NCBI GenBank assembly: GCA_964532925.1
Contig: CAZHIP010000003.1
Coordinates: forward strand, 644 to 64,643
Direction: 5' to 3'
Length of the DNA stretch: 64,000 bases
From: an uncultured Gammaproteobacteria bacterium
GTDB taxonomy: Bacteria; Patescibacteriota; Patescibacteriia; GWA2-47-26
This document shows, one piece after another, positions 17,360 through 61,047 of the stretch (the first letter of the stretch is position 1; every line of letters begins with the position of its first letter). A model generated the notes under the pieces. That model saw only the letters and a program-made list of their open reading frames with translations, searched no databases and was not told the origin of the DNA. Position numbers and translations under genes: made by a program.

Positions 17360-17459
17360 GTATATGAATGTACCAATAAACTACCCTTTTCAGGGATTTT
17401 TTTCAAGTTTTTGGCTTAAGTACCTAGAAACTTCTTCAAAAAAATTGTATCATGCACTC

Positions 17460-29879: not shown

Positions 29880-29995
29880 TACGTGAGTCCTCCGCTCCCA
29901 CATAGTATATCCCCCTTAAAAATGTGTTTCAATTATATCAAACACTTTTATTGCCGTCTTGTGGAAAAGATAAAATTCGCTTATTCTACTGGCAT

Positions 29996-32618: not shown

Positions 32619-33986
32619 CTACTGGGTAACATATAAACGTTGTTTAATGTGTTCCATATCTTGCTTCAGTTTTTGATCATTTTCCAATCCTCTCCCAATC
32701 TTTGCACAGGCATGGATGGCAGTTGTGTGATCCCTTCCTCCAAGCTCTTGTCCAATCGCGGGATATGAATATTTTAATTCTTCGCGCAACAGATACATAA
32801 TAATTTGGCGAGGGAATGCTAAACGTTGCTCTCTGCTTTTTCCAGCAATTTCGTCGAGATCTACGTCAAAAAATGTCGCAACTGTCTGAATAACATGTTT
32901 TGGGGTGATCGATCGTTTTAAGCTGTTGCTCGCCGGTGTGAGAATTGTTTTTACAAAATCAAGAGTAAGCGGAGTGTTTTTGAGTTGATGAAAGGCAATC
33001 AGTTTATTGAGTGCTCCTTCGAGTTCGCGAACATTGTGGTGAATAACTCCCGCCACATATTGGATTACTTCACTATCAAGTGCATATTGTCGTTCAAAAC
33101 ATTTCTTTTCTAGGATTGCTACGCGGGTTTCAAAGTCTGGTGGGTTAATATCAGCAACCATCCCCCACTCAAAACGAGAGAGGAGGCGCTTTTCCATAGC
33201 ATTGATTTCTTTTGGTGGGCGGTCAGAGGACAGTAAGACTTGTTTGTTTGATTGGTGGAGTGCGTTGAAGGTGTGAAAAAAAGCCTCCTGTGTTTCGTTT
33301 TTACCCGACATAAATTGCACATCATCAACCATCAAGAGATCAACACCACGATAGCGGTCTTGAAATGTTTTTGCTTGGCCAGTTCTCACTGCATTAATAA
33401 AATCCGAGGTAAATGTCTCGGAGGTTACATAGAGAATTTTGGCACTAGGGTTTTGACGCACAATCTCGTTCCCTACTGCTTGGAGTAAGTGGGTTTTACC
33501 AAGTCCGACACCACCATAAATAAAGAGTGGGTTGTAGGCCTCACCAGGTCGTGCTGCAACGGCGCGGGCCGCAGCTGACGCAAGCTCGTTTCCTTTGCCA
33601 ATAATGTAGCTGTCGAACGTGTAGCGGGAGTTTAACCCCCAACGGCTTAATGATTCGCGGTTTGGGGTTGATTCTCGCAGAGGAGCAGATGCGTCGCTTG
33701 GGCGCACGAGACTTATGTTTGTTGGTTGAGGTGGAACAATTGACCCAACATGAAAGGAGAGTTTCTTTACAGTACGATCGGTAAGCTGTTGCAGGCGGCT
33801 TAAAATAGGTGCATGGTATTTCTTCTCAAGCCAAGCTTTGGTAAAATTGTTGGGTACAGAAATAGCGACAATCCCATTCTCCATACTTACGATTGCTGTA
33901 TTTTTGAACCAAGTAGTGAAATTAGCCTTGGAAAGCTGGAGTTCGAGTTCGCTTAACGTGGCTTGCCAAAGTTGTTCAGGGCTCAT
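32619..33986 (-). CDS. dnaA: Chromosomal replication initiator protein DnaA
   Basis: N-terminal MSPEQLWQATLSELELQL, AAA+ Walker A GGVGLGKTHLLQAVGNE, DnaA signature and C-terminal HTH (HTTAIHACAKI); 455 aa. Confidence 0.95.
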   Translation of the reverse strand: MSPEQLWQATLSELELQLSKANFTTWFKNTAIVSMENGIVAISVPNNFTKAWLEKKYHAPILSRLQQLTDRTVKKLSFHVGSIVPPQPTNISLVRPSDASAPLRESTPNRESLSRWGLNSRYTFDSYIIGKGNELASAAARAVAARPGEAYNPLFIYGGVGLGKTHLLQAVGNEIVRQNPSAKILYVTSETFTSDFINAVRTGQAKTFQDRYRGVDLLMVDDVQFMSGKNETQEAFFHTFNALHQSNKQVLLSSDRPPKEINAMEKRLLSRFEWGMVADINPPDFETRVAILEKKCFERQYALDSEVIQYVAGVIHHNVRELEGALNKLIAFHQLKNTPLTLDFVKTILTPASNSLKRSITPKHVIQTVATFFDVDLDEIAGKSREQRLAFPRQIIMYLLREELKYSYPAIGQELGGRDHTTAIHACAKIGRGLENDQKLKQDMEHIKQRLYVTQ

Positions 33987-42417: not shown

Positions 42418-42873
42418 TTATGCTCGAGGGTGTCGAGTTAGGCTTACTAATAAGAGCACTGATCCGGCAATAATAAAAATATCAGCAAGGTTAAACCATG
42501 ATATCCAGATATGGAATGTGTCGAGTACGCCGCCAAAATGTAGGCGGTCGTATGTATTGCTTGTGGCTCCACCCACAATAAGCGCCGCAGGAATGGCGGT
42601 TGCAAACGTTCGATACACCTTGAGCTTGAAGCACACGAGCAAGAGACCGATAGATGCCAATGTAAGCAAGATTGCAATAAGGCCAGGCGGTGCAGCGATG
42701 CTAAAACTAAGACCACGATTTATGGAAATTGAATTTGGTGCAAAAGACTGATACAGCAGTTTGATAAGCCGGTCGAGAATAAAAAAACCAAGAGCAAAAA
42801 TAAATAAAAACAACGGCCCAGAAGAGGTGCCGTTGTTCTTTATGTCGATCAATTTCGTGAAATTAAATTTCAT
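42418..42873 (-). CDS. lspA: Lipoprotein signal peptidase (signal peptidase II)
   Basis: Four TM helices and conserved GGATSNTYDRL and FNLAD motifs; start placed at MKFNF (Met 34 of listed ORF) giving a typical 152-aa LspA. Confidence 0.75.
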   Translation of the reverse strand: MKFNFTKLIDIKNNGTSSGPLFLFIFALGFFILDRLIKLLYQSFAPNSISINRGLSFSIAAPPGLIAILLTLASIGLLLVCFKLKVYRTFATAIPAALIVGGATSNTYDRLHFGGVLDTFHIWISWFNLADIFIIAGSVLLLVSLTRHPRA

Positions 42874-43237
42874 TGAGCATCTTTTTTTTGCACTCGATGC
42901 AAGAACTCGAGGTTGGTCGTGCTTGGAGGCGGCGCTCATCAATTGGCTTTTTGCAGTATTTGCAAACGCCATACGTGCCGTCCTGGATTGACTTCAAGGC
43001 GCTGTTTACATCACGGAGAGCTGTTTCGAGGGTATGTTCAAGAGTGAGATTGTCGCTATAGGTTGCTACTTCCGATGCGCTATCTTCTTCTTTATCGCCG
43101 TATTCAGGAAAGTTTGTAGCAAACCCTTCTTTTGATCCTTTGTCGCGTGTAGCAAAACTACCAAGCTCGGACTCGAGTTTGGTCTTTTGGGCCAAGAGAC
43201 CCTCTTCTACTTCTTTCAAAAACGTCTTTGTGGGCAT
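42863..43237 (-). CDS. DksA/TraR-family C4-type zinc-finger protein
   Basis: Coiled-coil N-terminus and C-terminal CKYCKKPIDERRLQARPTSSSCIEC four-Cys finger. Confidence 0.7.
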   Translation of the reverse strand: MPTKTFLKEVEEGLLAQKTKLESELGSFATRDKGSKEGFATNFPEYGDKEEDSASEVATYSDNLTLEHTLETALRDVNSALKSIQDGTYGVCKYCKKPIDERRLQARPTSSSCIECKKKMLNEI

Positions 43238-46921: not shown

Positions 46922-47857
46922 ATGGACATCTTGGGGTATAAGCGCCAATTCCTCGAACACCTAGAGATTGAGAAGAACCGTTCACCCAAGACGGTTCAGA
47001 ATTATGATTTTTACCTCGAGCGCTTTCTCAAGTGGGCAAAATACCCGTCCCCTGCCAACCTGACCGCAGAAGTTGTCCGACAGTTCCGCCTGTGGCTGCA
47101 CCGCCAGGTTGATCGCAATGGTGAACCACTCAAATCAAACACACAGAACTATCACCTGATTGCACTCCGCTCGTTTCTCAAGTTTTTGGCACGACGTGAT
47201 GTAGAAACATTGTCTGCCGAAAAGATTGATCTTGCTAAAGGCGAACAGCGTATTGTGGAGTTTTTGGAAGGTTCTGACTTGGAGCGGTTTCTCAATGGTC
47301 CACTGCAAGGAGACAAAGGACGCACGATTATTGGCAAACGTGATGCGGCAATTCTAGCGCTTCTCTTTTCAACGGGTCTTCGTGTATCAGAGCTAGCACG
47401 ACTCAAGCGCGACGATATTAACCTGAAGCGCGAAGAATTTACGGTGCGCGGGAAAGGGCGGAAGCCGCGCTTGGTATTTGTCTCCCCTGCGGCGCGCATG
47501 ACCTTGCTCGCCTATCTCGAAGCACGCCGTGACGAAGCGGAGTCGTTGTTTGTCCGCCATGATCGAGCAAAACCAAAAGGCGGAGATATTGAACCAGAGC
47601 CAATAACCTCTCGTTCGATTGAACGGCTTGTTGCCCAATATGCCAAGGCTGCAGGGATTACCAAGCGTATTACGCCGCATGTCCTGCGTCACTCGTTTGC
47701 TACTGATTTATTAAGAAACGGGGCGGATATTAAGGCGGTCCAATCGCTTTTGGGGCATGCTTCTATCACGACGACCCAAATTTACACCCACGTAACCGAC
47801 AAGCACTTGCGAGAGACACATAAGAAGTTTCACGGTAAAAAGGGTGGTGGGTCTTGA
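46922..47857 (+). CDS. xerC: Tyrosine site-specific recombinase XerC/XerD family
   Basis: N-terminal SAM-like domain (SPKTVQNYDFYLERFLKW), catalytic box HVLRHSFATDLLRNGADIKAVQSLLGHASITTTQIYTHV with active-site Tyr; 311 aa. Confidence 0.85.
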   Translation: MDILGYKRQFLEHLEIEKNRSPKTVQNYDFYLERFLKWAKYPSPANLTAEVVRQFRLWLHRQVDRNGEPLKSNTQNYHLIALRSFLKFLARRDVETLSAEKIDLAKGEQRIVEFLEGSDLERFLNGPLQGDKGRTIIGKRDAAILALLFSTGLRVSELARLKRDDINLKREEFTVRGKGRKPRLVFVSPAARMTLLAYLEARRDEAESLFVRHDRAKPKGGDIEPEPITSRSIERLVAQYAKAAGITKRITPHVLRHSFATDLLRNGADIKAVQSLLGHASITTTQIYTHVTDKHLRETHKKFHGKKGGGS

Positions 47858-48349: not shown

Positions 48350-48385
48350 AGAAAAGCACCTGTTTCGGCAGGTGTTTTTCTTTTG
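48350..48385 (+). terminator. Rho-independent terminator after tRNA-His (aagcacctg-tttcggc-aggtgttt + T-run)
   Basis: Hairpin and TTTTTCTTTT. Confidence 0.6.
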
Positions 48386-48449
48386 GAAACAGTTGACAAT
48401 AGAGCGATTTTGTGGTAGGTTTTGGGGTCCACAACCAAGGAGGACTAGC

Positions 48450-48839
48450 ATGAGTGAGGGTTTCCCGTTTTGTAAGCGGGATCGTAACAACCCGATCGAG
48501 AATGCCTTAATTGGCTATTGCGAGGGGTTGTTTCGCGGGATGAAAGATTCGCGGTGTGTTAGACCCGAGTGCGCGCAAGGAGTGAGTCGTCCTTTGAACG
48601 CACGCCTGCTACGCTTTGAGCAGACCTACGGCAAAGAGGCTGTGGACAAGGTCCGTCTCTATGCTATGCTCAAAGGGAGGAGTACCACGTTCTGCGTTGG
48701 GTGTCAGTTTTTGGACACCGCTGATCGCAGCACGCCTCTGTTCCTTGAACAACTTGCTCGGGAGACTCTTCAACCCGAGTATTACAACAGGCTTCTGGCG
48801 AATTACCAGGAGCTTGTAAGAAAGTTTGGTGGCAGATGA
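48450..48839 (+). CDS. Hypothetical Cys-rich protein, cassette gene A1 (129 aa)
   Basis: ATG at 48450 with aaggagga RBS 7 nt upstream; Cys pairs CKRD...C, CVRPEC, CVGCQ; GC-rich; paralogous to product of 49232-49615. Confidence 0.55.
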   Translation: MSEGFPFCKRDRNNPIENALIGYCEGLFRGMKDSRCVRPECAQGVSRPLNARLLRFEQTYGKEAVDKVRLYAMLKGRSTTFCVGCQFLDTADRSTPLFLEQLARETLQPEYYNRLLANYQELVRKFGGR

Positions 48840-49081
48840 AAACGCAAAAGAGGACGACGACCATAGTCAAGGATCCGTTTCAGGAGATTCTCCTCGAGGA
48901 GGCTGCATCTCTGAAGCGCGACCACCCAGAGGTTTTCGCTGATGCGCAAGCGCTCTCTGCGGAGACGCTCCACGAAGTCGCTCATGCGTGGGCTTTCTCG
49001 CGCGACGATGACCTTAAGTACACGAACCTCGCGTCGCGCACCGCCGACGAGCTCCACACGCTCCTCTTCCCTGAAGAGTAG
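48836..49081 (+). CDS. Hypothetical protein, cassette gene B1 (81 aa)
   Basis: ATGA overlap with upstream gene; paralogous to the short ORF at 49612-49755 (FQ...SLKRDHPEVFA vs FQ...SFRRSYPKVAA). Confidence 0.45.
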   Translation: MKTQKRTTTIVKDPFQEILLEEAASLKRDHPEVFADAQALSAETLHEVAHAWAFSRDDDLKYTNLASRTADELHTLLFPEE

Positions 49082-49105
49082 CGCCACATGCACCGTCCCT
49101 CGCCC

Positions 49106-49147
49106 CGAAGCCCGACCAGTGAAAACTGCTCGGGCTTCTTTCTTTTT
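49106..49147 (+). terminator. Rho-independent terminator, repeat copy 1 (gaagcccga-ccagtgaaaactgc-tcgggcttc + tttcttttt)
   Basis: 9-bp stem, T-run; near-identical to copy at 49853-49898. Confidence 0.6.
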
Positions 49148-49231
49148 ATGCAAGATCTTGACTTTTTGGAGAAAATGTGAGATGGTTTCCTGTTCCCGTC
49201 AACAAAAAACGAACAAGGAACGGAGGTATGT

Positions 49232-49615
49232 GTGCCCCCAACGAATTTAATTCCTCGGAATCACGAGGATGAATTCCAGAATGCATCCAGGGAATGGGTG
49301 CGGGATGTCATAGAATGGCTTCCCGCGGCACCAATCTCGGATGGGGTCTTCGAGGAGATCCTTCTGGAGATTTCCGATTACGTCAGGGAGCTCGAGAGCG
49401 AGCTCGGGCAGGAGACTGTCTGGCGTTGCCATATGTACGCTTCTTTGCGAGGTAGTGGCAACTACCTTAAAGAGGTGTACACTACATTTGACCGAGAAGG
49501 TTCCCCGACACTGCTCTTCCTTGAGAGTCTTCTCAAGGAAAAGATCCCGGAGGAGTTTAAGGAGTTTCAGAGGGAGATGGAACGACCATCTATCCTCACA
49601 GGAGGTAGTAAGTGA
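49232..49615 (+). CDS. Hypothetical protein, cassette gene A2 (127 aa, GTG start)
   Basis: GTG at 49232 after ggagg; shares HMYASLRGSG / SPTLLFLESLLKE / EFKEFQREMER blocks with gene A1 (RLYAMLKGRS / STPLFLEQLARE / EYYNRLLANYQE). Confidence 0.5.
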   Translation: MPPTNLIPRNHEDEFQNASREWVRDVIEWLPAAPISDGVFEEILLEISDYVRELESELGQETVWRCHMYASLRGSGNYLKEVYTTFDREGSPTLLFLESLLKEKIPEEFKEFQREMERPSILTGGSK

Positions 49616-49755
49616 AGAAGGAAGCGTTCCAGCACGCGACTCCACTGGCCCAAGAAGTTGAGTCGTTTCGCCGCAGCTACCCGAAGGTGGCAGCTAAGGT
49701 TTGCAAGGGGGGTCTTCGACATGGAGACTCTTCGAAACCTCTTGCTGATTCCTAA
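49612..49755 (+). pseudogene. Truncated/frameshifted paralogue of cassette gene B (47 aa in frame)
   Basis: GTG start overlapping upstream stop; homology to gene B1 stops at an in-frame TAA while a +1 frame continues about 24 more codons. Confidence 0.35.
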
Positions 49756-49852
49756 GGGGTTCAGCCTTCTTGCGGCCCTGGGTGAGAGTGAGCTGGATCG
49801 CGCACTGCGATCTTAGGCCTCACTTCTCGCTCCCCGCACTGTTACATCCGCC

Positions 49853-49898
49853 GCGAAGCCCGACCAGTATCAATGACTCGTCGGGCTTCTTTCTTTTT
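49853..49898 (+). terminator. Rho-independent terminator, repeat copy 2 (cgaagcccgac-cagtatcaatgactc-gtcgggcttc + tttctttttt)
   Basis: Same stem sequence as copy 1 with different loop. Confidence 0.6.
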
Positions 49899-49930
49899 TA
49901 TCTGCCTGTTTTGGTATACACTCAATATCT

Positions 49931-50599: not shown

Positions 50600-51166
50600 T
50601 TACCAGCTCCCAATACGGTTGCGACACGCCTTCCAGTCGGCAAGGAGTTTTTGTTGTGTCGCGTCGCCGCTCATTGTGTTACTGGTTGGGTTGGTAAAAC
50701 CAGTGCGGCCAGAAGAGTTCTGGAAATTCGCCCACTCTTGGCAGCAAGCGCCAGCGGAACCAGAGCAGGTTGTCACAGCATCGAGCATGTTTTCTTCCAT
50801 GGTATTGATGAGTCGGAATTGCAAGAATCGCGCAATGCCTAATGATGAAAACAAGAAGACGGCACCAATAGATGATTGGATCAGAATCTTTTGTGCTTTC
50901 TTGATTGGCTCCGGTGATCCTTGGGCGTTGAACCACAGCACCCCCGCGTAGACAATACGAATAATAAAGATAAGACCAACCACGCTTAACGCACCGGCAA
51001 TAATGCGTGCGGCAACAATACGCGGGTCGAGTGCGGTGCCGGTCGCCACCAAGCTTGCAAATTGAGCAGCTTGCGATGCGCCACCAATAATCTCGTTCGC
51101 GAGTCCTTGATCGATTGGACCAGCGGCAAGTGCTTGGGGGAAGAGTAATGTGAAGAGGTGAAACAT
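50600..51166 (-). CDS. TrbC/VirB2-pilin-like small secreted membrane protein, paralogue 1 (C-terminal Cys-rich tail)
   Basis: Conserved core RIIAGALSVVGLIFIIRIVYAGVLWFNAQGSPEPIKKAQKILIQSSIGAVFLF (TM - YAGxxW - G - KKAx - TM) shared with nine upstream paralogues. Confidence 0.5.
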   Translation of the reverse strand: MFHLFTLLFPQALAAGPIDQGLANEIIGGASQAAQFASLVATGTALDPRIVAARIIAGALSVVGLIFIIRIVYAGVLWFNAQGSPEPIKKAQKILIQSSIGAVFLFSSLGIARFLQFRLINTMEENMLDAVTTCSGSAGACCQEWANFQNSSGRTGFTNPTSNTMSGDATQQKLLADWKACRNRIGSW

Positions 51167-51169
51167 ATT

Positions 51170-51769
51170 TTAGGGGGTGATCCGACCGCTTACTCCTTCG
51201 AAAGGCGCTGCACCTGGTGGTGCGGTGTATTGGAAATTACCACCCGAGCTTTGTGCGCCAAAGAGAAGGCCGCGCAATACAAAGTTGGCGAGAAGATATG
51301 ACATCAAGAGAATCAGAAGTCCGATAGATGCGCGCACAATACGTTGTCGAGATTTTTTGACTTGATCGCTATCGCCGGCGGCAGTCATCCAGCGAATACC
51401 TGAGTAAATAACCATACCCAAGAAGATGGTTCCGGATATGGCAAAAATAATATAAATGACACGACCAACGCGCGCAGGGAGGTTGGCGGATGCGGAATCT
51501 ACTTTGTATCCCCCGCTCGTGAACAGCGACTTCGTGGTTGCTTTGAGGGTTGCATTGGTGCCATTTGCCTTTTCTATAGCTTTATCTAAAGCTGCTTGGT
51601 CAGCAGCGTCGGCGGCGGAAGTTGCAGCGGCACCCGCTGCTCCAAAGGCATCTTGATTCAGGGAGTCAATTTCACTAGTATCTTGTGCATGACTTGTGTT
51701 GAGTGCTACCAAAGATAGCGTTGCAACAAAGAACGGTATCGCAAGAAATTTTATAAAGGGTTTGTTCAT
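51170..51769 (-). CDS. TrbC/VirB2-pilin-like small secreted membrane protein, paralogue 2
   Basis: Signal peptide MNKPFIKFLAIPFFVATLSLVALNTSHA; Ala-rich variable region; core VIYSGIRWMTAAGDSDQVKKSRQRIVRASIGLLILLMSYLL. Confidence 0.55.
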   Translation of the reverse strand: MNKPFIKFLAIPFFVATLSLVALNTSHAQDTSEIDSLNQDAFGAAGAAATSAADAADQAALDKAIEKANGTNATLKATTKSLFTSGGYKVDSASANLPARVGRVIYIIFAISGTIFLGMVIYSGIRWMTAAGDSDQVKKSRQRIVRASIGLLILLMSYLLANFVLRGLLFGAQSSGGNFQYTAPPGAAPFEGVSGRITP

Positions 51770-51773
51770 ATGG

Positions 51774-52289
51774 TTATGGCGTAACGCTTTTTTGCAGGAA
51801 CGAAGTGATAAAAGTGGTAATCGCCCACGCCGCAAGAATTATGGATAATCCGATAACTGCTTTGGAGGCAATGCCTTGGGCTTTTTTTACGGATTCATCA
51901 TTGCCACCCGCGGTTGTCCAGAGATATCCTGCATAAAATAGAAGTGCGAAGAAGAGAAAGCCGATGACTGTGAGGACGAATTTAATAATGGCAACAACGT
52001 AGGCGCGGACGTCGTTACTTGGCACACAGGTTTCAACTCCTTGCGCATTGGTCGAGCAGGTCATGTCGCTCGTGGGCGCAGTATACCCGGCGCCTTTTAG
52101 GAATGCGCGGGTAACCGAAGAGTTTGGGGTTTGGTCACGTTGGGCGGCGGGTACACTGAAATCTCCGTTAGCATTCCGCACAGCCTGCTCGCCATCAATT
52201 ACTTGCATCGGTTCGTCTCCTGGAAATTGTTGCGCATATACTGGTAGCGCACACACAAGTCCTATGAATAAAAACAATAGGACTTTCAT
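51774..52289 (-). CDS. TrbC/VirB2-pilin-like small secreted membrane protein, paralogue 3
   Basis: Signal peptide MKVLLFLFIGLVCALPVYA; core LFYAGYLWTTAGGNDESVKKAQGIASKAVIGLSIILAAWAI. Confidence 0.55.
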   Translation of the reverse strand: MKVLLFLFIGLVCALPVYAQQFPGDEPMQVIDGEQAVRNANGDFSVPAAQRDQTPNSSVTRAFLKGAGYTAPTSDMTCSTNAQGVETCVPSNDVRAYVVAIIKFVLTVIGFLFFALLFYAGYLWTTAGGNDESVKKAQGIASKAVIGLSIILAAWAITTFITSFLQKSVTP

Positions 52290-52293
52290 TGTA

Positions 52294-52683
52294 TTATTGT
52301 TGCGCATAGAAGAGGATGAATTGAGTAATTGCACCTGCAAGAATGGTGATGATGAGACCGATAGAAGCACGGGTGAGGATTTTGGTTGCCTTTTTGATGT
52401 CTTCATCATCGCCTCCGGCGGTCATCCAAACGTATCCGGCGTAGGCAATAAGTGCGAAAAAGAGAAAGCCAGTTGCAACGAGTGCGATACGGACAATGGA
52501 ACCAATGAGCGTAGCGAGTGCCACCGAGCTATCCCCGCTTGCGCGAGTATACCCCGCACCTACTTCTGCAATATTTTTTAGTCTAAAGCGCAAGGAGTTC
52601 GTGGTCGTCATTTGATCGGTAGCAGCAAGTACTCGCATGGGGGCGAGTATCGCAGCTACCGTAAGTATGGAGCGTCGCAGCAT
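52294..52683 (-). CDS. TrbC/VirB2-pilin-like small secreted membrane protein, paralogue 4
   Basis: Signal peptide MLRRSILTVAAILAPMRVLA; core IAYAGYVWMTAGGDDEDIKKATKILTRASIGLIITILAGAI. Confidence 0.55.
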   Translation of the reverse strand: MLRRSILTVAAILAPMRVLAATDQMTTTNSLRFRLKNIAEVGAGYTRASGDSSVALATLIGSIVRIALVATGFLFFALIAYAGYVWMTAGGDDEDIKKATKILTRASIGLIITILAGAITQFILFYAQQ

Positions 52684-52686
52684 AGA

Positions 52687-53169
52687 TTATGAGTCGGTAG
52701 CAGGAGTCTCAGTAATTACTGGTGGTGTTGTGGTTGATGATTGGAATGCCGAGTTGATAACGCGATCAACCACAAAGGTGGTGATGGCATAGGCAGCGAC
52801 CACAATCACGAGACCAATCGTCGCACTTTCAAGAATATTTTTTGACTTTTTAATTTGGTCTTCGGTGCCCCGCGCAGTCATCCACAAGAATCCGGCGTAG
52901 ACCATCAAAACACCAAAGATGACACCCATAAGCACAATGAGTGACTTGATCAGCTGACCAATAATAACTTCGGGCGGTACAGCTCCTTCCGGAAATCCAG
53001 CTTGCTTGGCTACTGGTGTAAACATGTTCAAAGATCCTTTGAGTCCTGTTTTTGTGGTAGTAATCTCATCTTGCAGGGTTGGAGAGGTGCTGGGTGCAGC
53101 ATGAACGGTCGCCACCGGTGTTGCGAAGAATGTGAGACCCAGGATTGCAGCAAAGAGAGCCTTTTTCAT
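52687..53169 (-). CDS. TrbC/VirB2-pilin-like small secreted membrane protein, paralogue 5
   Basis: Signal peptide MKKALFAAILGLTFFATPVATVHA; core MVYAGFLWMTARGTEDQIKKSKNILESATIGLVIVVAAYAI; Thr/Pro-rich C-terminal tail. Confidence 0.55.
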   Translation of the reverse strand: MKKALFAAILGLTFFATPVATVHAAPSTSPTLQDEITTTKTGLKGSLNMFTPVAKQAGFPEGAVPPEVIIGQLIKSLIVLMGVIFGVLMVYAGFLWMTARGTEDQIKKSKNILESATIGLVIVVAAYAITTFVVDRVINSAFQSSTTTPPVITETPATDS

Positions 53170-53176
53170 AGGAGGA

Positions 53177-53587
53177 CTAAGAACCCACGCTTGAAAGCAG
53201 TGTCTTTAAGACAAAGTTCGTGACGACATAGGACATGAAGACAATAACCATACCAAGGGCTGCTTGTTCGATCATGTCTTTTGCTTTTTTGACTTGTTCG
53301 TTGCCGCCACGTGCAGTCATCCACAAGAATCCGGCGTAGACCATGATGCCAAAGAAGATTACGCCGACAAATGCGAGGACATAGCCAATAATAGTACCAA
53401 TAAGTGTTGCGGGGCCGATTTTGGTGTTCCCTGCCCCAGGAATACCGGCTGATTTAGCAGTTTGATCAAGGCCAAACGTGTTGGGGGGTTCTGTTGCAGC
53501 AAACGCGTGCGTTGAAGCTAGTAGCGCTGCTCCGAGAATGATGAGTGAGAAGGCAAACGCAAAGATTTTTTTGTAGTGTTTCTGCAT
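53177..53587 (-). CDS. TrbC/VirB2-pilin-like small secreted membrane protein, paralogue 6
   Basis: Signal peptide MQKHYKKIFAFAFSLIILGAALLASTHAFA; core MVYAGFLWMTARGGNEQVKKAKDMIEQAALGMVIVFMSYVV. Confidence 0.55.
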   Translation of the reverse strand: MQKHYKKIFAFAFSLIILGAALLASTHAFAATEPPNTFGLDQTAKSAGIPGAGNTKIGPATLIGTIIGYVLAFVGVIFFGIMVYAGFLWMTARGGNEQVKKAKDMIEQAALGMVIVFMSYVVTNFVLKTLLSSVGS

Positions 53588-53591
53588 AAGG

Positions 53592-53975
53592 TTAGGTGGC
53601 GATGCCGGTAGTTGCCGACAACAGTGATTGAAGTACAAAGCGTGCAATGACGTATGCAGAAAGCACAATGGCGAGACCAATGATTGCAGAGGTGATGGTG
53701 CTCAGAGCTTTTTTATTCGTGTCGGCATTACCGGCTGAGGTGAGGTAGCGGAAGCCTGCAACAACAAGGAGTACCACAAAGAAGACGCCGAGTAGTCCAA
53801 GTACGATGTTGATGATATCAGCCGCAATGATCCGAACATCTCGGCTCCCAAGGCCAGTGTATTCGCCGTATTGTAGGCCAAGGTCTGGTTGCGCGTGGGC
53901 GATGCGCGAAACAAACACCACTCCCGCTGCCGCTAGATAAGAAAGTCGTCGTGTGTACTGTTTGAGTAGTGGCAT
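53592..53975 (-). CDS. TrbC/VirB2-pilin-like small secreted membrane protein, paralogue 7
   Basis: Signal peptide ...LSYLAAAGVVFVSRIAHA; core LVVAGFRYLTSAGNADTNKKALSTITSAIIGLAIVLSAYVI. Confidence 0.55.
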   Translation of the reverse strand: MPLLKQYTRRLSYLAAAGVVFVSRIAHAQPDLGLQYGEYTGLGSRDVRIIAADIINIVLGLLGVFFVVLLVVAGFRYLTSAGNADTNKKALSTITSAIIGLAIVLSAYVIARFVLQSLLSATTGIAT

Positions 53976-54035
53976 AAAAATAGTATTTCTCTCGCCTCCC
54001 CTTCCAAAAAATTGGAAAGAGAAGCCAAAGTGCGA

Positions 54036-54419
54036 TTAGACGTTAACCGCTTCGGTGAGTTTTGAGATAACGAATGTTGCGATAGCATAGGCCGACAAAA
54101 TAATTGCCAAACCAATGACACCGGACTTGATAAGACCTTGCGCCTTTTTCACTTTTTCATCAGAACCTGCTGCGGTCATCCACATAAAACCACCTGCGAG
54201 GATGATTACCACGGCAACGATACCCAAGATCGAGAGTGCCGAGTTGATGAGTGAGGCAACAGTGACTGGAAGCGATTTAGTTCCCAAAAGAGTTTTGGTT
54301 TGAAATTCACTTCCGTCTCCAACTCCGAGCTGGCCTGCAGTTATAGCATGAGCAAACATCGGCATGGCAAGAATTGCTACCATGGCCACCATCAAAATAC
54401 CTTTTTGCATTTTTTTCAT
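54036..54419 (-). CDS. TrbC/VirB2-pilin-like small secreted membrane protein, paralogue 8
   Basis: Signal peptide MKKMQKGILMVAMVAILAMPMFAHA; core ILAGGFMWMTAAGSDEKVKKAQGLIKSGVIGLAIILSAYAI. Confidence 0.55.
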   Translation of the reverse strand: MKKMQKGILMVAMVAILAMPMFAHAITAGQLGVGDGSEFQTKTLLGTKSLPVTVASLINSALSILGIVAVVIILAGGFMWMTAAGSDEKVKKAQGLIKSGVIGLAIILSAYAIATFVISKLTEAVNV

Positions 54420-54605
54420 ATTCTCACCCCCTTTCAGTGTTAAGTCTTTGCACTATATTGCCTGAGCACAGGTTGTTGTAACAACCGGAGTCGAAGGCCT
54501 ACCGATGGTACCCTTCGACTAGCTCAGGGAATATAGCGGAAGACAGTTATTCATAGGACACGAGCCAGGCACCTTATGGATGCGCGGTTCGCGTCCTACA
54601 AAAGA

Positions 54606-55328
54606 TTATGGAGTAAATGTACCCTGCAGTGCACCCAAGACGTAGCGCAAAATGATGTAGGCAGTAAAGATGAGGAGAATTCCTGCAACAGACCACTTGA
54701 TAATCTCCTGGCCTTTCTTTACGCCTTCGGAGCTACCGCCAGCGGTCAGCCATAGTATACCGCCATAGATGAACATGAGTAAGGCCAAAGAACCCACAAT
54801 AGAAAGTAGGGCCTTAATAACGCGACCAATGAGTTCTTCTGGGCTGGTGGTGCCGAGTGGATTTGGGAGAGTTACTCGACCAGAGAGTTGGGCGGGGGTG
54901 GCGGTGGCTGCGGGGGTTGGAGAGGCGGCGGTGGTTGTGGCGGGCACCATTGTTACAGTACACGTCTGCCCAGATGGAATACAGGATGTGCACTGTCCTC
55001 CTGCGGCTGTGCAGAGTGCAAGGGTAGCGTACTGAGAAGTTGCTAATTCATTTCTGCAGCAGACATAAGAAGTGTCGGGAGCTGCAACAGGGGCTGCACA
55101 AGTCGCAGCAGCTTCTGTACCTTCTTTGCAGGTTCCTGTAAGACCGGTGGTGCCGCTTGGAGAGCATTGTGGATTGCTGTTGGTGCATAGACTGAGCGAG
55201 TCGTAGGTCCGCAGAGCTCCACCCTCAGCCGAGCAGCACCAAGCTTTAGCAAAAGAAATTTTTGGAGTGAGTATGCTAAAAAATAAAACAGAGACTATTA
55301 TTGCAGTGCGCCAAAATGAGTGCCTCAT
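54606..55328 (-). CDS. TrbC/VirB2-pilin-like secreted membrane protein, paralogue 9, with internally duplicated Cys-rich N-terminal domain
   Basis: Signal peptide; two repeats of WCC/VCC...L(S/A)LCT...QC...; Thr/Pro/Ala linker; core FIYGGILWLTAGGSSEGVKKGQEIIKWSVAGILLIFTAYII. Confidence 0.55.
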   Translation of the reverse strand: MRHSFWRTAIIVSVLFFSILTPKISFAKAWCCSAEGGALRTYDSLSLCTNSNPQCSPSGTTGLTGTCKEGTEAAATCAAPVAAPDTSYVCCRNELATSQYATLALCTAAGGQCTSCIPSGQTCTVTMVPATTTAASPTPAATATPAQLSGRVTLPNPLGTTSPEELIGRVIKALLSIVGSLALLMFIYGGILWLTAGGSSEGVKKGQEIIKWSVAGILLIFTAYIILRYVLGALQGTFTP

Positions 55329-55333
55329 ATCTT

Positions 55334-56239
55334 CTATAGTTTACAGCATTGCACGTTCGCAGCGCCAGGGCATAACCCGGTTTTGCAGGTGCTTTGTTGG
55401 ACGGGAGTCAGTGTAGTTTTGTCGGTGCATTGATAGGTGCCCTTGTCGTCATTTATTAGTGATGCATCTGGTGGCAGAGAATTGTAGCGGCAAATATCAA
55501 CACAGACGCCTTGTATAGGTGCGCGACCACCTATTGCAACGTCTGGCCCGTAATAACAGACCATGTTTGTTTCTTCGTTGTCGTTACAGTCTTGGCCTTG
55601 AATCCCATTGACTGGGCAATCCGGTGTTGCATCAGGGTCGACGACGATTTGACCAACACTATTCGTTCCTGTGCCAATGTCGGCACCGATTGATTTGGTG
55701 ACAAACGTGACAATAGCGCCAGCGCCAAAGGTAATCATGATGGCAATAATCGAATTGACCATGAGGCTTTTGCCTTGCTTTATCTTGCCGCTCTCCCCCG
55801 CCGAGAGAATAAAGTAATACAGCGCACCCCCAATAAATACCGCAAGGGCGACGCCGCCCGTAATACCAAAGATTAACCGCACGATATTAAGAACGGTGAC
55901 AAAAATATCGTCGACCGAGTAGTTGCACGGGATATCGGTTTTGATCCCGCCTTTTGTGATTGCTGCATCTGCTTTTGTGCAGGAGGTGTCAAAAGTGCCG
56001 TCTGCTTTTGGTCCACATCGATTGCACATGCCTTGAATGCACTGCATGTCGACTTTGTCGAGGGTATATTTGGGGGTTTCTCCGGTTGGAGTATTTTTGT
56101 GAGCAGTAGCGGTGAGGTATTGCGGGCATGTGCCTGTTGGCTCAGAAAGAATCGCTGCGTGGGCGCGGTGACCCGCGAACGTTGATGCAAAAAGCAATAC
56201 CGCAAAGATACCAGTTTGAATATGTCGACGAGAGATCAT
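55334..56239 (-). CDS. TrbC/VirB2-pilin-like membrane protein, paralogue 10, with Cys-rich extracellular N- and C-terminal domains
   Basis: ATG at 56239 overlaps SBP stop (ATGA); signal peptide MISRRHIQTGIFAVLLFASTFAGHRAHA; core FIGGALYYFILSAGESGKIKQGKSLMVNSIIAIMITF; 14 Cys in the C-terminal 110 aa. Confidence 0.5.
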   Translation of the reverse strand: MISRRHIQTGIFAVLLFASTFAGHRAHAAILSEPTGTCPQYLTATAHKNTPTGETPKYTLDKVDMQCIQGMCNRCGPKADGTFDTSCTKADAAITKGGIKTDIPCNYSVDDIFVTVLNIVRLIFGITGGVALAVFIGGALYYFILSAGESGKIKQGKSLMVNSIIAIMITFGAGAIVTFVTKSIGADIGTGTNSVGQIVVDPDATPDCPVNGIQGQDCNDNEETNMVCYYGPDVAIGGRAPIQGVCVDICRYNSLPPDASLINDDKGTYQCTDKTTLTPVQQSTCKTGLCPGAANVQCCKL

Positions 56240-57651
56240 CGTAGTGTCTGGGTTACTTTTGCAGCACCGAGGCGGAGAATGTCGCGGAGTTCGTGCTCCC
56301 CTTTTAATGCCTCGTCGATCATACTGGTCATGGCAGCTTCGGCGGCAGCGACGTTGGCACCGCGGTACCAACTTTTGGCAGTGAGAATTTCTGAAACAAA
56401 GACACCAACATCAGGATCTTCTGATCGCGGAGCAATGAGTGCGCGCAGTGCTGGTGGCTTGCGGGTGGCATCGAGATACAAGCTTGCCTGTTTAGGTGCT
56501 GCGGCGAAGTTCACAAAGTCCCAAGCGACATCAGGGTTTTTGCTTTTCTTTGAGACGGACTCAACAAAGTAGTTGGCAAAGTTTACCGCCGGATTTCCTT
56601 CAATTTGTGGCACCTTGGCGATCTCGAGGTTGAGTTTTGGTGCGCGGGCTTTGATGAGTGGTACGTGGTACGAGTAGCCAAGGAAAAACGCGGTTTTGTT
56701 GTTGGCAAATGCGTCGAGTGAGCCTGGCATGTCAGCGTTCCAGCTATAGCTTTCTTTGGCAGGGTTTGCAAAGTCGGTGTAGAACGTGAGTGCTTCTTCG
56801 CCAGGTGGAACATTGCGACGTGTGAGCGTTGAAGGTGTTTGGTCAAACAGTGCGCGCGAGTTGGTGCCATCAAGCATTTCAGCTCCATTTTGCATCATGA
56901 GAAGACCTAAGATGTCTGCAGCACGTTCGATGTTTTTGCTGGTACCAAGTGCGGCACCTGATTGCAGAATGGTGGTGCCAGCTCCTAGGCGGGTAATCTT
57001 TTTTGCGGCTTCACGGAATTCCGACCAGGTGCGGGGTACCTCGGGTACGCCAGAAAGATTTAAGAGGTCGCGGTTTACAAACAGTGCGAGTGTATCGATA
57101 CCAAGCGGCAGGCCGTAGACACCTTCGGCGGAGGTTGGATTGGTTGGGTCTTGGGGAGCAATCACATCTGCGGCAACGATGTCGGCAAACGTGTTTTTGA
57201 TATCACGAACGGTGGGTAGAGATGTGGTTTTGAGCACCGTAATAACCTCCTTTTTCAGTGTTCCTTGAGTGATTTGGTATGGCAACGTGACCTGTCGCGG
57301 CATGGGCAACAGCTTGGACTGAAAGCGACGGATTTCTGTGTTGTGGAGGGAGACGATGTCGGGCCCGCGGTCTTCGGCAAGTGCGTTTAAGAGCGCTGGT
57401 TCGTATTCTTCGTAGCGGAATTTGCGGTAGACAACAGTGACGTTGGGGTGCAGTGCGTTGTAGGCTTCGATGATGGGTCGTACAGTGTCTTCGCCATCAA
57501 ATACGCGCCACCAAGTTAGAGTGATTGGCTTTGATGCCCTTGTGACTTCAGCTGATTGTCCTTGGCAGCCAAAGCCAGTGCCAGCGAATACGAGGATTCC
57601 AATAGTAGTTATTGCGGCGATCCGGGAGGCGATGGCACGAAGGCGTAGCAT
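56236..57651 (-). CDS. ABC transporter extracellular solute-binding protein (family 1, sugar-type) lipoprotein
   Basis: Signal peptide with Cys (ILVFAGTGFGCQG), ITLTWWRVFDGEDTVRPIIEAYNALHPNVTVVY typical of SBP_bac_1 N-terminus; no cognate permease or ATPase genes adjacent. Confidence 0.7.
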   Translation of the reverse strand: MLRLRAIASRIAAITTIGILVFAGTGFGCQGQSAEVTRASKPITLTWWRVFDGEDTVRPIIEAYNALHPNVTVVYRKFRYEEYEPALLNALAEDRGPDIVSLHNTEIRRFQSKLLPMPRQVTLPYQITQGTLKKEVITVLKTTSLPTVRDIKNTFADIVAADVIAPQDPTNPTSAEGVYGLPLGIDTLALFVNRDLLNLSGVPEVPRTWSEFREAAKKITRLGAGTTILQSGAALGTSKNIERAADILGLLMMQNGAEMLDGTNSRALFDQTPSTLTRRNVPPGEEALTFYTDFANPAKESYSWNADMPGSLDAFANNKTAFFLGYSYHVPLIKARAPKLNLEIAKVPQIEGNPAVNFANYFVESVSKKSKNPDVAWDFVNFAAAPKQASLYLDATRKPPALRALIAPRSEDPDVGVFVSEILTAKSWYRGANVAAAEAAMTSMIDEALKGEHELRDILRLGAAKVTQTLR

Positions 57652-57656
57652 AGGGT

Positions 57657-58520
57657 TTATGGGAGACTGTGCAAGAATTTACTAAAGGGTTTTTTGAGTT
57701 CTTTGTGTTCAAGTGCCAAGGAAACATTTGCCTCGAGCCAGCCGAGTTTTGATCCAACGTCGAAGTATTGTCCTTCGAATCGGCGTGCGTAGACAGCGCG
57801 CTGTTTGCACAGAGTGGCAATGGCATCAGTAAGCCAGAGCTCTCCACCTTTCCCGAGTTTGGTATCTTTCAATATCCCGAAAATATCTGGGGTGAGAAGA
57901 TATCCACTGACAGAAGCTAAAAGTGACGGCGCTCGTTCGGGCCCTGGTTTTTCGACAATAGTAGAGACCTTGAATGTGTTGTGAGAAATCTCGGCGGCAT
58001 CGAGAATGCCATAGCGAGATGTCCCCTCTTTGTCGGTATCAATCGCGGTAAGAACTGGGTCACTGTACTTATTATACACCTCAATGAGCTGTGCGAGGTG
58101 TGGTTTCTTTTTTCCAAGGAATAAATCATCACCAAAAGCGACGATAAAAGGTTCGTTGCCAATAATTTTTTCGGCACACAACACCGGAGTACCGTTTCCG
58201 TATGGGCCTTTTTGGCGAACATAGATGAAGTTTGCCATGTCGGCGATACGCTTCATTTCTTCGCGCATTTCTTCTTTGCCTTGTTTGGTAAGCCAGCTTT
58301 CGAGTTCGTAGTTGTAGTCAAAGTGATCTTCGACCGCACGTTTTGCGGCGCCGGTGACGAGGATAATATCCTCAATCCCCGCTTTGACTGCTTCTTCGAC
58401 AATATATTGCACGACGGGTTTGTCGACCACGGTGAGCATTTCTTTTGGTTGGGCTTTGGTGGCAGGCAGGAACCGGGTGCCATAGCCAGCCACGGGAATC
58501 ACGAGTTTGCGAACCTTCAT
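57657..58520 (-). CDS. galU: UTP--glucose-1-phosphate uridylyltransferase
   Basis: KLVIPVAGYGTRFLPATKAQPKEMLTVVDKPVVQYIVEEAVKAGIEDIILVTG canonical GalU N-terminus; 287 aa. Confidence 0.9.
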   Translation of the reverse strand: MKVRKLVIPVAGYGTRFLPATKAQPKEMLTVVDKPVVQYIVEEAVKAGIEDIILVTGAAKRAVEDHFDYNYELESWLTKQGKEEMREEMKRIADMANFIYVRQKGPYGNGTPVLCAEKIIGNEPFIVAFGDDLFLGKKKPHLAQLIEVYNKYSDPVLTAIDTDKEGTSRYGILDAAEISHNTFKVSTIVEKPGPERAPSLLASVSGYLLTPDIFGILKDTKLGKGGELWLTDAIATLCKQRAVYARRFEGQYFDVGSKLGWLEANVSLALEHKELKKPFSKFLHSLP

Positions 58521-58593: not shown

Positions 58594-59550
58594 TTAGTAC
58601 TTCGGTGTTGGTGTAGGGAGGTTTTGCTTGTAGATGTCGGGGTCGATAGTTCGGGTGAAGCACTGGCGGCCAATGGCATGTTCCCAATTATCGCCATATG
58701 GTGCGTAGGCAGGATACGGGCGTGTAGAACCATCGAGATTTGAGTTGCCGCTTTTTGAAGCAGTGGCGAACGTACCACACATTTCGAACGATAGCGGACT
58801 CTTGATTGAGTATTCGTACGCGGTACCCGTTTCTGGATCAATAGGTGCAGTAAATCCAGTGATATCGTCATGCAGTGCTTTGAGGTCGGCGGGCAGTTTG
58901 CTCTTTTGTGACCAGTAGCCAATGACCTGGCCTTGAATTGATGAAAGGTCGTTGACGCGGCGGTCGTCAAAACGAATAGCGCGTTGTTCTGACGGTGAAC
59001 CTGCAATAAAGACACCAGAAACAAGGCTTATGAGAAGCACGATGCCAGTGGCTATCGCCCAGATTCTCGGACTCATACTTGGTTTTCCTGAACGGTTGAG
59101 ATCCCAAAGGTAATAGCCAAAAACCGCACCAGCGACGAGGAGGACTGTGAGAACCTTGAGGCCGAATTGTGTTGAAAGATCGCCGCTGTAGAATGTGTAC
59201 ACCAGGCGTGCTAGTTCAACAATGATGGTAACCGCTGCAGCAAACAAGGTGAAATACATGAGCCATTTGCGAATGCGGAGGTCGTGGCGACTCGGAGTTT
59301 TGTTGAGGTCACGTTCGAGCATCCATGAAAGACCAAGGAATACCGGGAAGACAACAATCAGCGTCGAGGATGTCCAGCGTACGCCATCGAGTGGGCCCAT
59401 AATGCCATAGGAAAGCGCGTCGGGCAGTAAGATGTTTATGTATTGAAAGATAAGCGTGATAAAACTCACAATCGACATATAGAGCGTCGACATCATGAGC
59501 AGGTGCACAAAGACTTCTCGGGGGGTGGCGTATTCGTTTTTGTTTTCCAT
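58594..59550 (-). CDS. DUF5671-like polytopic membrane protein with C-terminal soluble domain
   Basis: Five N-terminal TM helices (MENKNEYATPREVFVHLLMMSTLYMSIVSFITLIF...) followed by about 130-aa domain; pattern matches DUF5671 family as I recall it. Confidence 0.45.
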   Translation of the reverse strand: MENKNEYATPREVFVHLLMMSTLYMSIVSFITLIFQYINILLPDALSYGIMGPLDGVRWTSSTLIVVFPVFLGLSWMLERDLNKTPSRHDLRIRKWLMYFTLFAAAVTIIVELARLVYTFYSGDLSTQFGLKVLTVLLVAGAVFGYYLWDLNRSGKPSMSPRIWAIATGIVLLISLVSGVFIAGSPSEQRAIRFDDRRVNDLSSIQGQVIGYWSQKSKLPADLKALHDDITGFTAPIDPETGTAYEYSIKSPLSFEMCGTFATASKSGNSNLDGSTRPYPAYAPYGDNWEHAIGRQCFTRTIDPDIYKQNLPTPTPKY

Positions 59551-59631: not shown

Positions 59632-61047
59632 TTACCAGATGATTTTAGTGAGCTCGCGGGGGTAGCGAATAAGATGAATGCCGAATTGCGCCTTAAATTG
59701 AGAAAACCCTTTCCAGGCATGCGGATCTTTGGGTGCCCAGAAGGTGCCAAAGTTGAGGAAGCGGATGCCGCGGCGGATTTCGTGCTGAAACCACGCATCG
59801 ATAAGGCCAGTGCCGACCGATGTGTTTCGCGCGCGTTTGGCAATAAATGAAATGGTGTGGTTTGAGATATTCGCATCGGGTAAGTCGAGTACCGCGAGCC
59901 CGGCAATGAGTGAACCACTGGTATCGCGGGCACCAATCATGACAAATCTATCGCCGTGGTGTTTGGTGTTGTAGCGTAATATGCCAATGAAAGGATATTT
60001 TGTGATCCATAAATGACTTTCTTTGCGGTATGCAGCCATAAACTCATCGGGACTAACGGGTCCAATGGTGTAGGTTGATTCGCGTAATGATTTGCGGCGG
60101 TGTCGTTTTGCGTGTTCTGTCCAATCTTCCCAATAGGCGGCGGGATTTTTAATTTCCGCAAAACCGGTTTGCTTGATATACGGTTTTTGTTTTTTGCTCC
60201 AGCCTTTGGGGGTGTCGGTGCGCGCGAGCCGGTGCCAACTGACAAAACCAATCCCCTTTTGTTTTGTGGGTGTTGGCTCGATGTCGGTTGTGTAGGATTC
60301 AAAGTAAAATGGACCGCGGCGAACACGAGTGCCGAGTGCGCCGGGTGTGCCAATAATTTCTCCACTGGAGTTATGCTCAAGGTAGAGTCGTGATTGTTTT
60401 GGATGGAGGTATTCTTTTGGTAGTGGATCTCCGGCGGCGCCGCGACCATGGTGTTGGTAGAGCGCAAGATGGTTATAGCGATACCGCCAATAGTCATGGC
60501 GGCCAAGCACGCGATCAAACATGGCAAGCATTTCGGGTGAGTGAAATATGTTTACGAGCATTGAGCCTTCGGGAGCGAGAAGGCGCTGGATTGCATTCGC
60601 AAAAGCAGCATCAGTAAGTGCAGGCGCTACGTGTTCTCCGGTAAAGAGATCAACGATAATGAGGTCGTATGTGCCCGTAAGATTTGGTACCAGCTCTGTT
60701 GCATCGCCAATAGTAATGGTGAGTTTTTCATTGAACACAAAAAGTGTACAGCGTTTGGCAACCTCAAGCATTGCTTCATCCCACTCAATCGCATCGATCG
60801 TTGCGTCACGGAAATATTCTTGTAATAGCCCAACTACCCCGCCAGCACCAAGACCAAGCAGCAGTATCTTTTTGGCACGGAAGTTTTTAGGTAACCGTAA
60901 GAGTGCGCGTTGCCACATGGTGTTGGTGTAGGGAGTTGTTTCATCCCAGAGGTTCACGTGGACAGACCACTTGCCCCATGAGCGGGTTGCGGAAATGCTA
61001 GCGTTTTTTTCTGATGACACACTGAAGTGCTCGTACAACCAGCTCAT
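59632..61047 (-). CDS. Fusion protein: spermidine-synthase-like class I methyltransferase domain + FemAB/GNAT-fold acyltransferase-like domain
   Basis: N-half: ILLLGLGAGGVVGLL, DAIEWDEAMLEVAK, DLIIVDLF (PABS-like SAM fold); C-half: FVMIGARDTSGSLIAGLAVL...IRFLNFGTFWAPKDPHAWKGFSQFKAQFG resembling FemABX / lysyl-PG-synthase C-terminal acyl-transfer fold. Confidence 0.4.
   Translation of the reverse strand: MSWLYEHFSVSSEKNASISATRSWGKWSVHVNLWDETTPYTNTMWQRALLRLPKNFRAKKILLLGLGAGGVVGLLQEYFRDATIDAIEWDEAMLEVAKRCTLFVFNEKLTITIGDATELVPNLTGTYDLIIVDLFTGEHVAPALTDAAFANAIQRLLAPEGSMLVNIFHSPEMLAMFDRVLGRHDYWRYRYNHLALYQHHGRGAAGDPLPKEYLHPKQSRLYLEHNSSGEIIGTPGALGTRVRRGPFYFESYTTDIEPTPTKQKGIGFVSWHRLARTDTPKGWSKKQKPYIKQTGFAEIKNPAAYWEDWTEHAKRHRRKSLRESTYTIGPVSPDEFMAAYRKESHLWITKYPFIGILRYNTKHHGDRFVMIGARDTSGSLIAGLAVLDLPDANISNHTISFIAKRARNTSVGTGLIDAWFQHEIRRGIRFLNFGTFWAPKDPHAWKGFSQFKAQFGIHLIRYPRELTKIIW

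Follow-up and report, generated by a model that had tools for sequence, protein, structure and literature searches.

Why do ten tandem pilin-like genes stand directly behind galU and a gene for a sugar-binding lipoprotein, with no recognisable type IV secretion system (T4SS) gene around them? The question is raised by a minus-strand locus at 50600-58520 of a 64,000-nt stretch of contig CAZHIP010000003.1 (assembly GCA_964532925.1, positions 644 to 64,643; the whole stretch is called the window below) from an uncultured, ultrasmall member of the Patescibacteria. The locus is a chromosomal operon-like block consisting of galU, a gene for a lipoprotein solute-binding protein (SBP) and ten VirB2/TrbC-like pilin paralogues. 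The reading preferred here, at a probability of about 0.6, is that the ten array proteins are subunits with distinct roles in a surface filament of T4SS type, and that a lipoprotein which binds glycans is dedicated to them as a partner.

The six-frame listing of open reading frames (ORFs), together with the inspection of start codons, gave ten consecutive pilin-like genes, G1 to G10, in the block 50600-56239 on the minus strand, as had been described in a first-pass annotation made from the DNA letters alone. That annotation gave the spacing as mostly 3-8 nt. For most junctions this was correct (3-7 nt), but it passed over two wider gaps, of 186 nt before G3 and of 60 nt before G4. Both junctions at the head of the array were read directly in the sequence and were as announced: the SBP stop and the G1 start overlap in ATGA, and 5 nt separate galU from the SBP gene. 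Judged by this overlap, G1 is translationally coupled to the SBP. The gene after G10 is encoded on the opposite strand. The 186-nt gap (54420..54605, minus strand) terminates with the Shine-Dalgarno sequence of G3, GGGGGTGAG, which is the array's only strong one, and the gap may be the site of an internal promoter. No convincing promoter or terminator was detected in it by consensus scan, and an Rfam scan returned only tRNAs and one borderline match, none of them in this gap.

The ten proteins were found to share a block of about 75 residues in which two hydrophobic helices are joined by a loop. The loop carries the motif (W/Y)(M/L)T(A/S)xG...(V/I)KK(A/S), and only one Lys (the first of the KK pair) and two Gly are invariant across the alignment. 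Pairwise identity in the core ranged from 13 to 48% (mean 32%), and mean column identity over the full length was 23%. By hydropathy and motif scan, each protein displayed its own N-terminal signal peptide with an AxA-type end, and the ectodomains outside the core did not align with each other. The topology proposed in the first-pass annotation, that is, a common two-helix core with its motif, individual signal peptides and mutually unrelated ectodomains, was therefore borne out by alignment, hydropathy and motif scan. A hidden Markov model (HMM) of the core recovered exactly G1-G10 in the window and nothing else. Since this recovery is a circular test, the independent one is the match to Pfam.

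All ten proteins matched the Pfam family PF18895 (T4SS_pilin). Eight scored above the gathering score of 26.6 bits, at 27.1-42.8 bits, and G5 and G8 fell below it with E<=4e-4. Family membership was further evaluated with a set of 66 sequences, made up of G3 orthologues (60 database sequences with 45-80% identity to G3) and of G3-G7. PF18895 was matched by all 66, and PF04956 (TrbC/VirB2) by 25 of them at E<=1e-3; a single one, P0092, exceeded the PF04956 gathering score (29.1 against 27.9 bits). These matches sustain the earlier assignment to a TrbC/VirB2-type pilin family. The same 66 sequences all matched NF045849, the "pilin-like conjugal transfer protein" of integrative and conjugative elements (ICEs) in mycoplasmas, at E<=1e-3 (best 2e-12). 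The scores of G3 (30.9), G6 (22.6) and G1 (16) lie under the curated cut-off of 40 bits, so this similarity is a sign of homology and not of membership. The link may bear on the origin of Patescibacterial pilins, because a 2025 survey describes monoderm MPF-FATA systems as being without VirB2 homologues (PMC12102498).

The ten genes differ mainly in what surrounds the hairpin. G1 (301 aa, 55334-56239; PF18895 at 27.1 bits) has its core at residues 111-187, and both its N- and C-terminal ectodomains are rich in Cys, 16 in total. In the N-terminal ectodomain of G2 (240 aa, 54606-55328; 42.6 bits), a 6-Cys module occurs twice (12 Cys in all), and a Thr/Pro/Ala linker comes after it. The internal duplication noted in the first-pass annotation is genuine but short, with 34 aligned residues. 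G3 (127 aa, 54036-54419; 35.2 bits) is a short pilin and the candidate major subunit. In its AlphaFold2 model, the signal peptide forms a helix and is connected by a linker of low confidence to a helical hairpin (50-82 and 87-126), for which the predicted local distance difference test score (pLDDT) is about 90. Database homologues of G3 number 645, some of which bear the NCBI product name "pilin".

G4, another short pilin (127 aa, 53592-53975; 42.8 bits), clustered with G3 as "type B". The following two genes are of "type A": G5 is a short pilin (136 aa, 53177-53587) that scored 20.9 bits (E 3.7e-4, below the gathering score) and whose membership is also backed by the core HMM and the alignment, and G6 (160 aa, 52687-53169; 29.1 bits) ends in a tail which, like the G2 linker, is Thr/Pro-rich. 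G7 (129 aa, 52294-52683; 30.6 bits) is again a short pilin. G8 (171 aa, 51774-52289) lies just under the gathering score, at 25.7 bits (E 1.3e-5), and has an N-terminal ectodomain of about 70 aa with 2 Cys. In G9 (199 aa, 51170-51769; 29.3 bits) an Ala-rich N-terminal ectodomain is combined with a short C-terminal tail, and G10 (188 aa, 50600-51166; 27.9 bits), the last of the array, has a C-terminal ectodomain of 65 aa with 4 Cys.

The conserved block begins with galU (57657..58520, minus strand), encoding a UTP-glucose-1-phosphate uridylyltransferase of 287 aa. The protein scored 332.2 bits against TIGR01099, whose cut-off is 326.8, and matched PF00483. By this score the nucleotidyltransferase is a true GalU, in agreement with its first identification. 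The next gene encodes the SBP (471 aa, 56236..57651, minus strand), which matched PF01547 (105 bits) and PF13416. Its AlphaFold2 model (pLDDT 93.7) displayed a MalE-like, two-lobe oligosaccharide-binding fold. The nearest structures in Foldseek were GacH, MalE and the sophoro-, cello- and cyclodextrin-binding proteins (E 1e-23 to 1e-19). The lipobox GFGC is found at residue 29. In nearly all of 86 orthologues a single Cys comes immediately behind the signal peptide, and 62 of them have the strict lipobox pattern, so the SBP is a lipoprotein; lspA is present in the window at 42418-42972. An additional feature of the model is a long conserved beta-hairpin (residues 120-144) inserted in one lobe, which accounts for much of the extra length relative to solved sugar-binding proteins and is a candidate surface for contact with a partner.

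In order to evaluate whether this arrangement is maintained, two samples of relatives were compared. In the first, loci were chosen by the SBP (orthologues at 38-53% identity in 53 species-representative genomes, 52 usable loci); the genomes are labelled Falkowbacteria, Uhrbacteria, Buchananbacteria, Kerfeldbacteria and "Patescibacteria group". We take the four named groups to belong to the GTDB class ABY1. In 48 of the 52 loci one or more pilin genes came after the SBP gene in the same orientation, and galU lay directly upstream of the SBP gene in 27. Many loci labelled Falkowbacteria have a single pilin gene after the SBP; other loci have 6-15. The second sample comprised metagenome contigs picked only by similarity to G3-type pilins. 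Among its 36 loci of at least 8 kb, the SBP was present in 32 and the complete galU-SBP-array order in 30. Arrays reached 15 genes, and in some loci 1-3 pilin genes stood between galU and the SBP gene. The coupling of galU and the SBP to the array, asserted from one sequence in the first-pass annotation, is thus strongly conserved synteny. Its remark that ten paralogues in a row is extreme did not hold: arrays of 2-11 genes have been published (PMC12102498), and relatives with 13-15 exist.

Other genes were observed to recur around the arrays of relatives. A polytopic membrane protein of about 550 aa is encoded directly 3' of the pilin array in 17 genome loci and several metagenome loci. One example, of 548 aa (L012:14361-16004, plus strand), gave no Pfam, NCBIfam or PDB sequence match; it may conceivably be a GT-C glycosyltransferase. 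Genes of GT2 glycosyltransferase and Wzy_C type also recur in these neighbourhoods. In at least 11 metagenome loci (L089, L094, L107, L116, L118, L120, L135, L138, L146 and others), two or three genes with class III signal peptides, as in type IV pilins, lie immediately upstream of galU-SBP-pilin, which makes both types of pilus gene neighbours in that sub-lineage. The leaders are, for instance, G|FSLIEV and G|YTLIET, and the proteins measure about 200, 430 and 590 aa.

Within the arrays, best-hit mapping and score-based clustering revealed that the paralogue types hold a conserved order across species. The best relative of G1 occupied position 1 in 21 of 27 related arrays, as a distinct and often long type beside the SBP, and that of G2 position 2 in 18 of 27. 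After these come the short type B (G3, G4), at least one type A (G5, G6) and divergent distal copies (here G7-G10). A close relative, contig L164, has an SBP 80% and a GalU 82% identical to those of the window, with ten one-to-one pilin orthologues in equal order and with equal flanks. The hairpin cores of the two arrays are 64-79% identical, with a single gap column across all ten, in contrast to the ectodomains, which are 13-59% identical and contain many indels. The Cys-rich domain of G2 has been replaced outright in L164, and the tail of G6 has been swapped for a Cys-rich one. In more than 130 related loci the ectodomains were almost without matches. The conserved order and the one-to-one orthologues argue for distinct subunit roles and against interchangeable copies. 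The comparison with related genomes that the first-pass annotation had called for therefore supported its expectation of a conserved array with ectodomain swapping, but not its picture of a free-form hypervariable set, since the order of the types is fixed.

According to the preferred reading, the pre-pilins would be exported by Sec and their AxA-type signal peptides cleaved. The mature pilin would be a helical hairpin in the membrane with both termini outward, and the short loop with the conserved KK pair would face the cytoplasm and later become the lumen of the filament. A VirB4-type T4SS, which we infer to be encoded elsewhere in the genome, would extract the hairpins and polymerise them into a surface filament or conduit for host-cell contact. 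The shaft would be built from the short, best-conserved subunits G3/G4 and probably also the G5/G6 type. G1, G2 and G8-G10 would serve as accessory subunits whose rapidly evolving domains, several of these domains probably disulfide-bonded, are exposed at the outer surface or the tip. The SBP, co-translated with the first pilin, would be a dedicated oligosaccharide-binding partner and not part of an importer; its ligand could be a glycan of the host or of the envelope, or it could handle pilins that carry glycans. GalU may be the source of UDP-glucose for an associated surface glycan or for the glycosylation of the Thr/Ser/Pro-rich segments. The glycosylated, sugar-sensing or adhesin-tip system put forward in the first-pass annotation would be compatible with this scheme, in which adhesion and glycosylation are hypotheses supported by the conserved synteny. 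What the data establish directly is the homology and topology of the pilins, the fold and lipobox of the SBP, and the maintained synteny and gene order, whereas polymerisation, the need for a T4SS, glycosylation and the part played by the SBP are inferred.

Several results weigh against a T4SS filament. PF04956 was matched by none of the ten window proteins at E<=1, so that the HMMER comparison suggested in the first-pass annotation came out positive for PF18895 (10/10) but not for TrbC/VirB2. PDB searches with profiles of the ten-paralogue alignment and of the G3-family alignment returned no VirB2, TraA or other pilin. Foldseek comparison of the G3 hairpin model with the PDB gave nothing at E<=1e-3, with generic helical hairpins on top; such a fold is too simple to settle family membership. 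No T4SS gene was found in the 10 kb past the right end of the window, and in about 90 related loci the surroundings of the array, out to about 10 kb, contained no recognisable VirB4- or VirD4-like ATPase or VirB6. The GT2 glycosyltransferase, the Wzy_C-type genes and the 548-aa polytopic protein of the relatives do not occur in the window. Co-transcription from galU received no support from the promoter and terminator consensus counts over 49.5-59.7 kb, which were no better than in shuffled sequence and are therefore uninformative on operon structure. To our knowledge, a filament has yet to be observed for any Patescibacterial T4SS.

None of the 47 ORFs scanned with Pfam, which include nearly all large ORFs of the window, was a VirB4, VirD4, VirB6, relaxase or ABC (ATP-binding cassette) permease, in line with the absence of VirB4, VirB6 and VirD4 reported in the first-pass annotation. 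The few large Walker-A ORFs near the arrays of relatives were of SMC, UvrA, FtsH, ComM or ABC type. As none of the three T4SS proteins was found in the window or nearby in relatives, the dependence on a T4SS is argued from homology and from the literature.

The alternative that survives best is that the hairpin is a mere membrane anchor and that the ten proteins display their ectodomains as adhesins or receptors, with neither filament nor T4SS. The lack of a nearby T4SS ATPase and the generic result of the fold search would be expected in that case, and several members have ectodomains of 70-160 aa that are possibly hard to pack in a VirB2-type helical filament. We regard this explanation as possible but unlikely. 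Resemblance to TrbC/VirB2 and to the pilin-like proteins of ICEs is found consistently throughout the family; the minimal members G3, G4, G5 and G7 have almost no ectodomain to display; and the loop motif with its invariant Lys is conserved far beyond the needs of a simple anchor. Moreover, a homologous array in Saccharimonadia lies inside a T4SS cluster and is essential (PMC10633639).

Clearly less probable is a variation system, in which the genes encode alternative major pilins, one or few of them expressed at a time, for a change of host range or for evasion of phages or host defences. The same has been proposed for the VirB2 paralogues of Bartonella and Anaplasma, and it is suggested for Patescibacteria in PMC12102498. 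The low identity within the array, the rewriting of ectodomains between close relatives, their near lack of matches in other loci, and a distal copy number that ranges from 1 to 15 across genomes are all compatible with it. On the other hand, the order of types is kept across species, each gene has its own orthologue in L164 (80% SBP identity), and the genes are mostly 3-7 nt apart with no internal promoters detected. Comparison of DNA repeats within the array revealed no invertible segments, near-identical repeats or silent cassettes. The only repeats correspond to the stretch that encodes the conserved loop (61-78% identity), among them a 160-nt repeat (71%) that G5 and G6 have in common, and recombination-based variation cassettes were rejected on this ground.

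It is about equally improbable that the SBP and galU are ordinary genes for sugar uptake and activation, placed beside the pilins by coincidence, and that the SBP serves an ABC importer encoded elsewhere. That the SBP has a canonical MalE-like fold and is anchored as a lipoprotein, like those of importers in monoderm bacteria, fits this explanation, as do the general roles of galU in envelope synthesis, and orphan SBP genes are common in reduced genomes. However, the adjacency persists down to about 38-50% SBP identity across dozens of species. The SBP stop and the pilin start overlap or are at most 19 nt apart in 31 of the 48 loci, and in some relatives pilin genes stand on both sides of the SBP gene. 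No ABC permease gene was found near the SBP in 53 loci of the candidate phyla radiation (CPR; flanks of about 10 kb) nor in the window, the queries being the neighbours of SBPs in Bacillus and Mesorhizobium loci. The lone ABC ATPase of the window (17328-18758) is about 38 kb from the SBP. A sugar-type lipoprotein without an adjacent permease, as the first-pass annotation had recognised, was hence confirmed by fold, lipobox and permease search.

There is likewise only a slim chance that the SBP and the VirB2-like hairpins form an envelope device of their own that needs no T4SS ATPase. The hairpins might, for example, oligomerise into a conduit in the membrane or at the surface, which would replace a classical ABC permease as the docking site of the SBP. 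If true, it would mean host-glycan capture or sensing via pilin-built structures, and thus both an SBP-dependent system of a new type and a novel use for the VirB2 fold. Finally, a type IV or Flp pilin identity was rejected since a class III signal peptide was found in none of the ten proteins, the lone "G....EY" match, in G4, falling downstream of the signal peptide.

The array lies about 17-24 kb from dnaA (32619-33986) and dnaN (31341-32465). As these two genes coincide with a change of sign in the GC skew, the site is likely the origin of replication. The borderline Rfam match is to AsdA ("antisense RNA of dnaA mRNA") at 33438-33518 on the plus strand, inside dnaA; its 52 bits equal the gathering score, and it is probably driven by conservation of the dnaA coding sequence. 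Two large putative surface proteins adjoin the origin: one of 2365 aa (20046-27143, plus strand) with Kelch, fibronectin-III and purple-acid-phosphatase-N repeats, and one of 839 aa (27384-29903, minus strand) with four lamin-tail domains. A 556-aa ORF at 1694-3364 (plus strand) matched no Pfam family, and an identical protein was not encountered among the gene products of the public collection.

The immediate flanks of the locus were compared with those of L164. Just upstream of galU, both genomes encode a DUF5671 membrane protein (58594-59550, minus strand) and a 471-aa spermine-synthase-like methyltransferase fusion (59632-61047, minus strand). They are 58% and 55% identical to their L164 counterparts, against 80-82% for the SBP and GalU, and so diverge as fast as the pilins. 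On the other side, about 1.5 kb (~48350-49900, plus strand) separates tRNA-His from the 205-aa gene that follows the array, where L164 has only 66 nt. This extra stretch holds small ORFs without a Pfam match, two of which are weakly alike (30% over 57 aa). A Xer-type integrase (46922-47857) and tRNA-Arg adjoin the region in both genomes. The 10 kb past the right end of the window carries Wzx-like and Wzy-like polysaccharide genes.

Pilin arrays as such have already been published. A survey described 441 arrays of 2-11 VirB2-like pilins, with a mean identity of 25%, in 383 Patescibacteria assemblies, enriched in Microgenomatia and Saccharimonadia, and marked those near virB4 (ring 5 of its Fig. 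S9; PMC12102498). The pilin genes of Ca. Southlakia epibionticum are part of its T4SS cluster and essential (PMC10633639; PMC12857230), and in other Patescibacteria T4SS pilins rank among the genes of unknown function with the highest expression (PMC10936435). The role of the T4SS in these bacteria has been called completely unknown (PMC11665869). The words "solute" and "galU" are absent from the text of the survey (PMC12102498), and in the literature searched there was no description of an SBP or galU linked to pilin arrays. The form headed by galU and the SBP, detached from virB4 and with ordered subunit types, thus appears to be new.

The closest known systems are these Patescibacterial arrays, namely the essential six-pilin array in the T4SS cluster of Ca. 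Southlakia epibionticum ML1, the "Sec-secreted array" of TM7x and those of the survey, which belong to the same Pfam family PF18895. They resemble the window array in their tandem divergent paralogues (about 25% identity published, 23% mean column identity here), in the Sec signal peptide followed by a helical hairpin, and in a chromosomal position fairly near dnaA. In contrast to the Saccharimonadia arrays, which are inside a T4SS cluster, the window array has no virB4, virB6 or other T4SS gene within tens of kb. It is headed by a lipoprotein SBP and galU, neither of which is mentioned for the published arrays (PMC12102498). Its relatives carry Falkowbacteria, Uhrbacteria, Buchananbacteria and Kerfeldbacteria labels, unlike the Microgenomatia and Saccharimonadia in which the published arrays are enriched, and reach 13-15 genes compared with 2-11.

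Classical TrbC/VirB2 pilins (PF04956; T-pilus, RP4 and F-like) have in common with the window proteins a long signal peptide, two hydrophobic helices and a short basic loop, and a weak but repeated HMM similarity was seen among the orthologues (25/66). The window proteins themselves are below PF04956 detection. They belong to a monoderm host without VirB5, VirB7, VirB9 and VirB10, and instead of one pilin the locus encodes many paralogues with ectodomains. The mycoplasma ICE protein ("Mbov_0395 family pilin-like conjugal transfer protein", NF045849) is likewise a hairpin, of about 80 aa, from a monoderm conjugation system. Unlike the window array, it is single-copy inside the ICE and has no ectodomains, SBP or galU. 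The VirB2 paralogues of Bartonella and Anaplasma also show tandem amplification and divergence of a pilin gene in host-associated bacteria, but with fewer copies, beside T4SS genes, in diderm pathogens and with no SBP or galU partner.

The SBP, for its part, resembles the family-1 MalE-like proteins of ABC importers in its two-lobe fold (Foldseek E ~1e-23) and its monoderm-type lipoprotein anchor. It differs from them by the beta-hairpin 120-144, by the lack of an adjacent permease or ATPase in about 50 genomes and by the pilin gene that follows it. Patescibacteria represent a large part of the diversity of bacteria, and for most of them life seems to be spent attached to other cells; the only species tested required the T4SS and its pilin array. 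Against this background, the fast-changing ectodomains are candidates for setting host specificity, and the locus and its about 80 relatives would represent a second genomic form of the pilin array, which is detached from the ATPase, ordered, paired with an SBP and usually accompanied by UDP-glucose synthesis.

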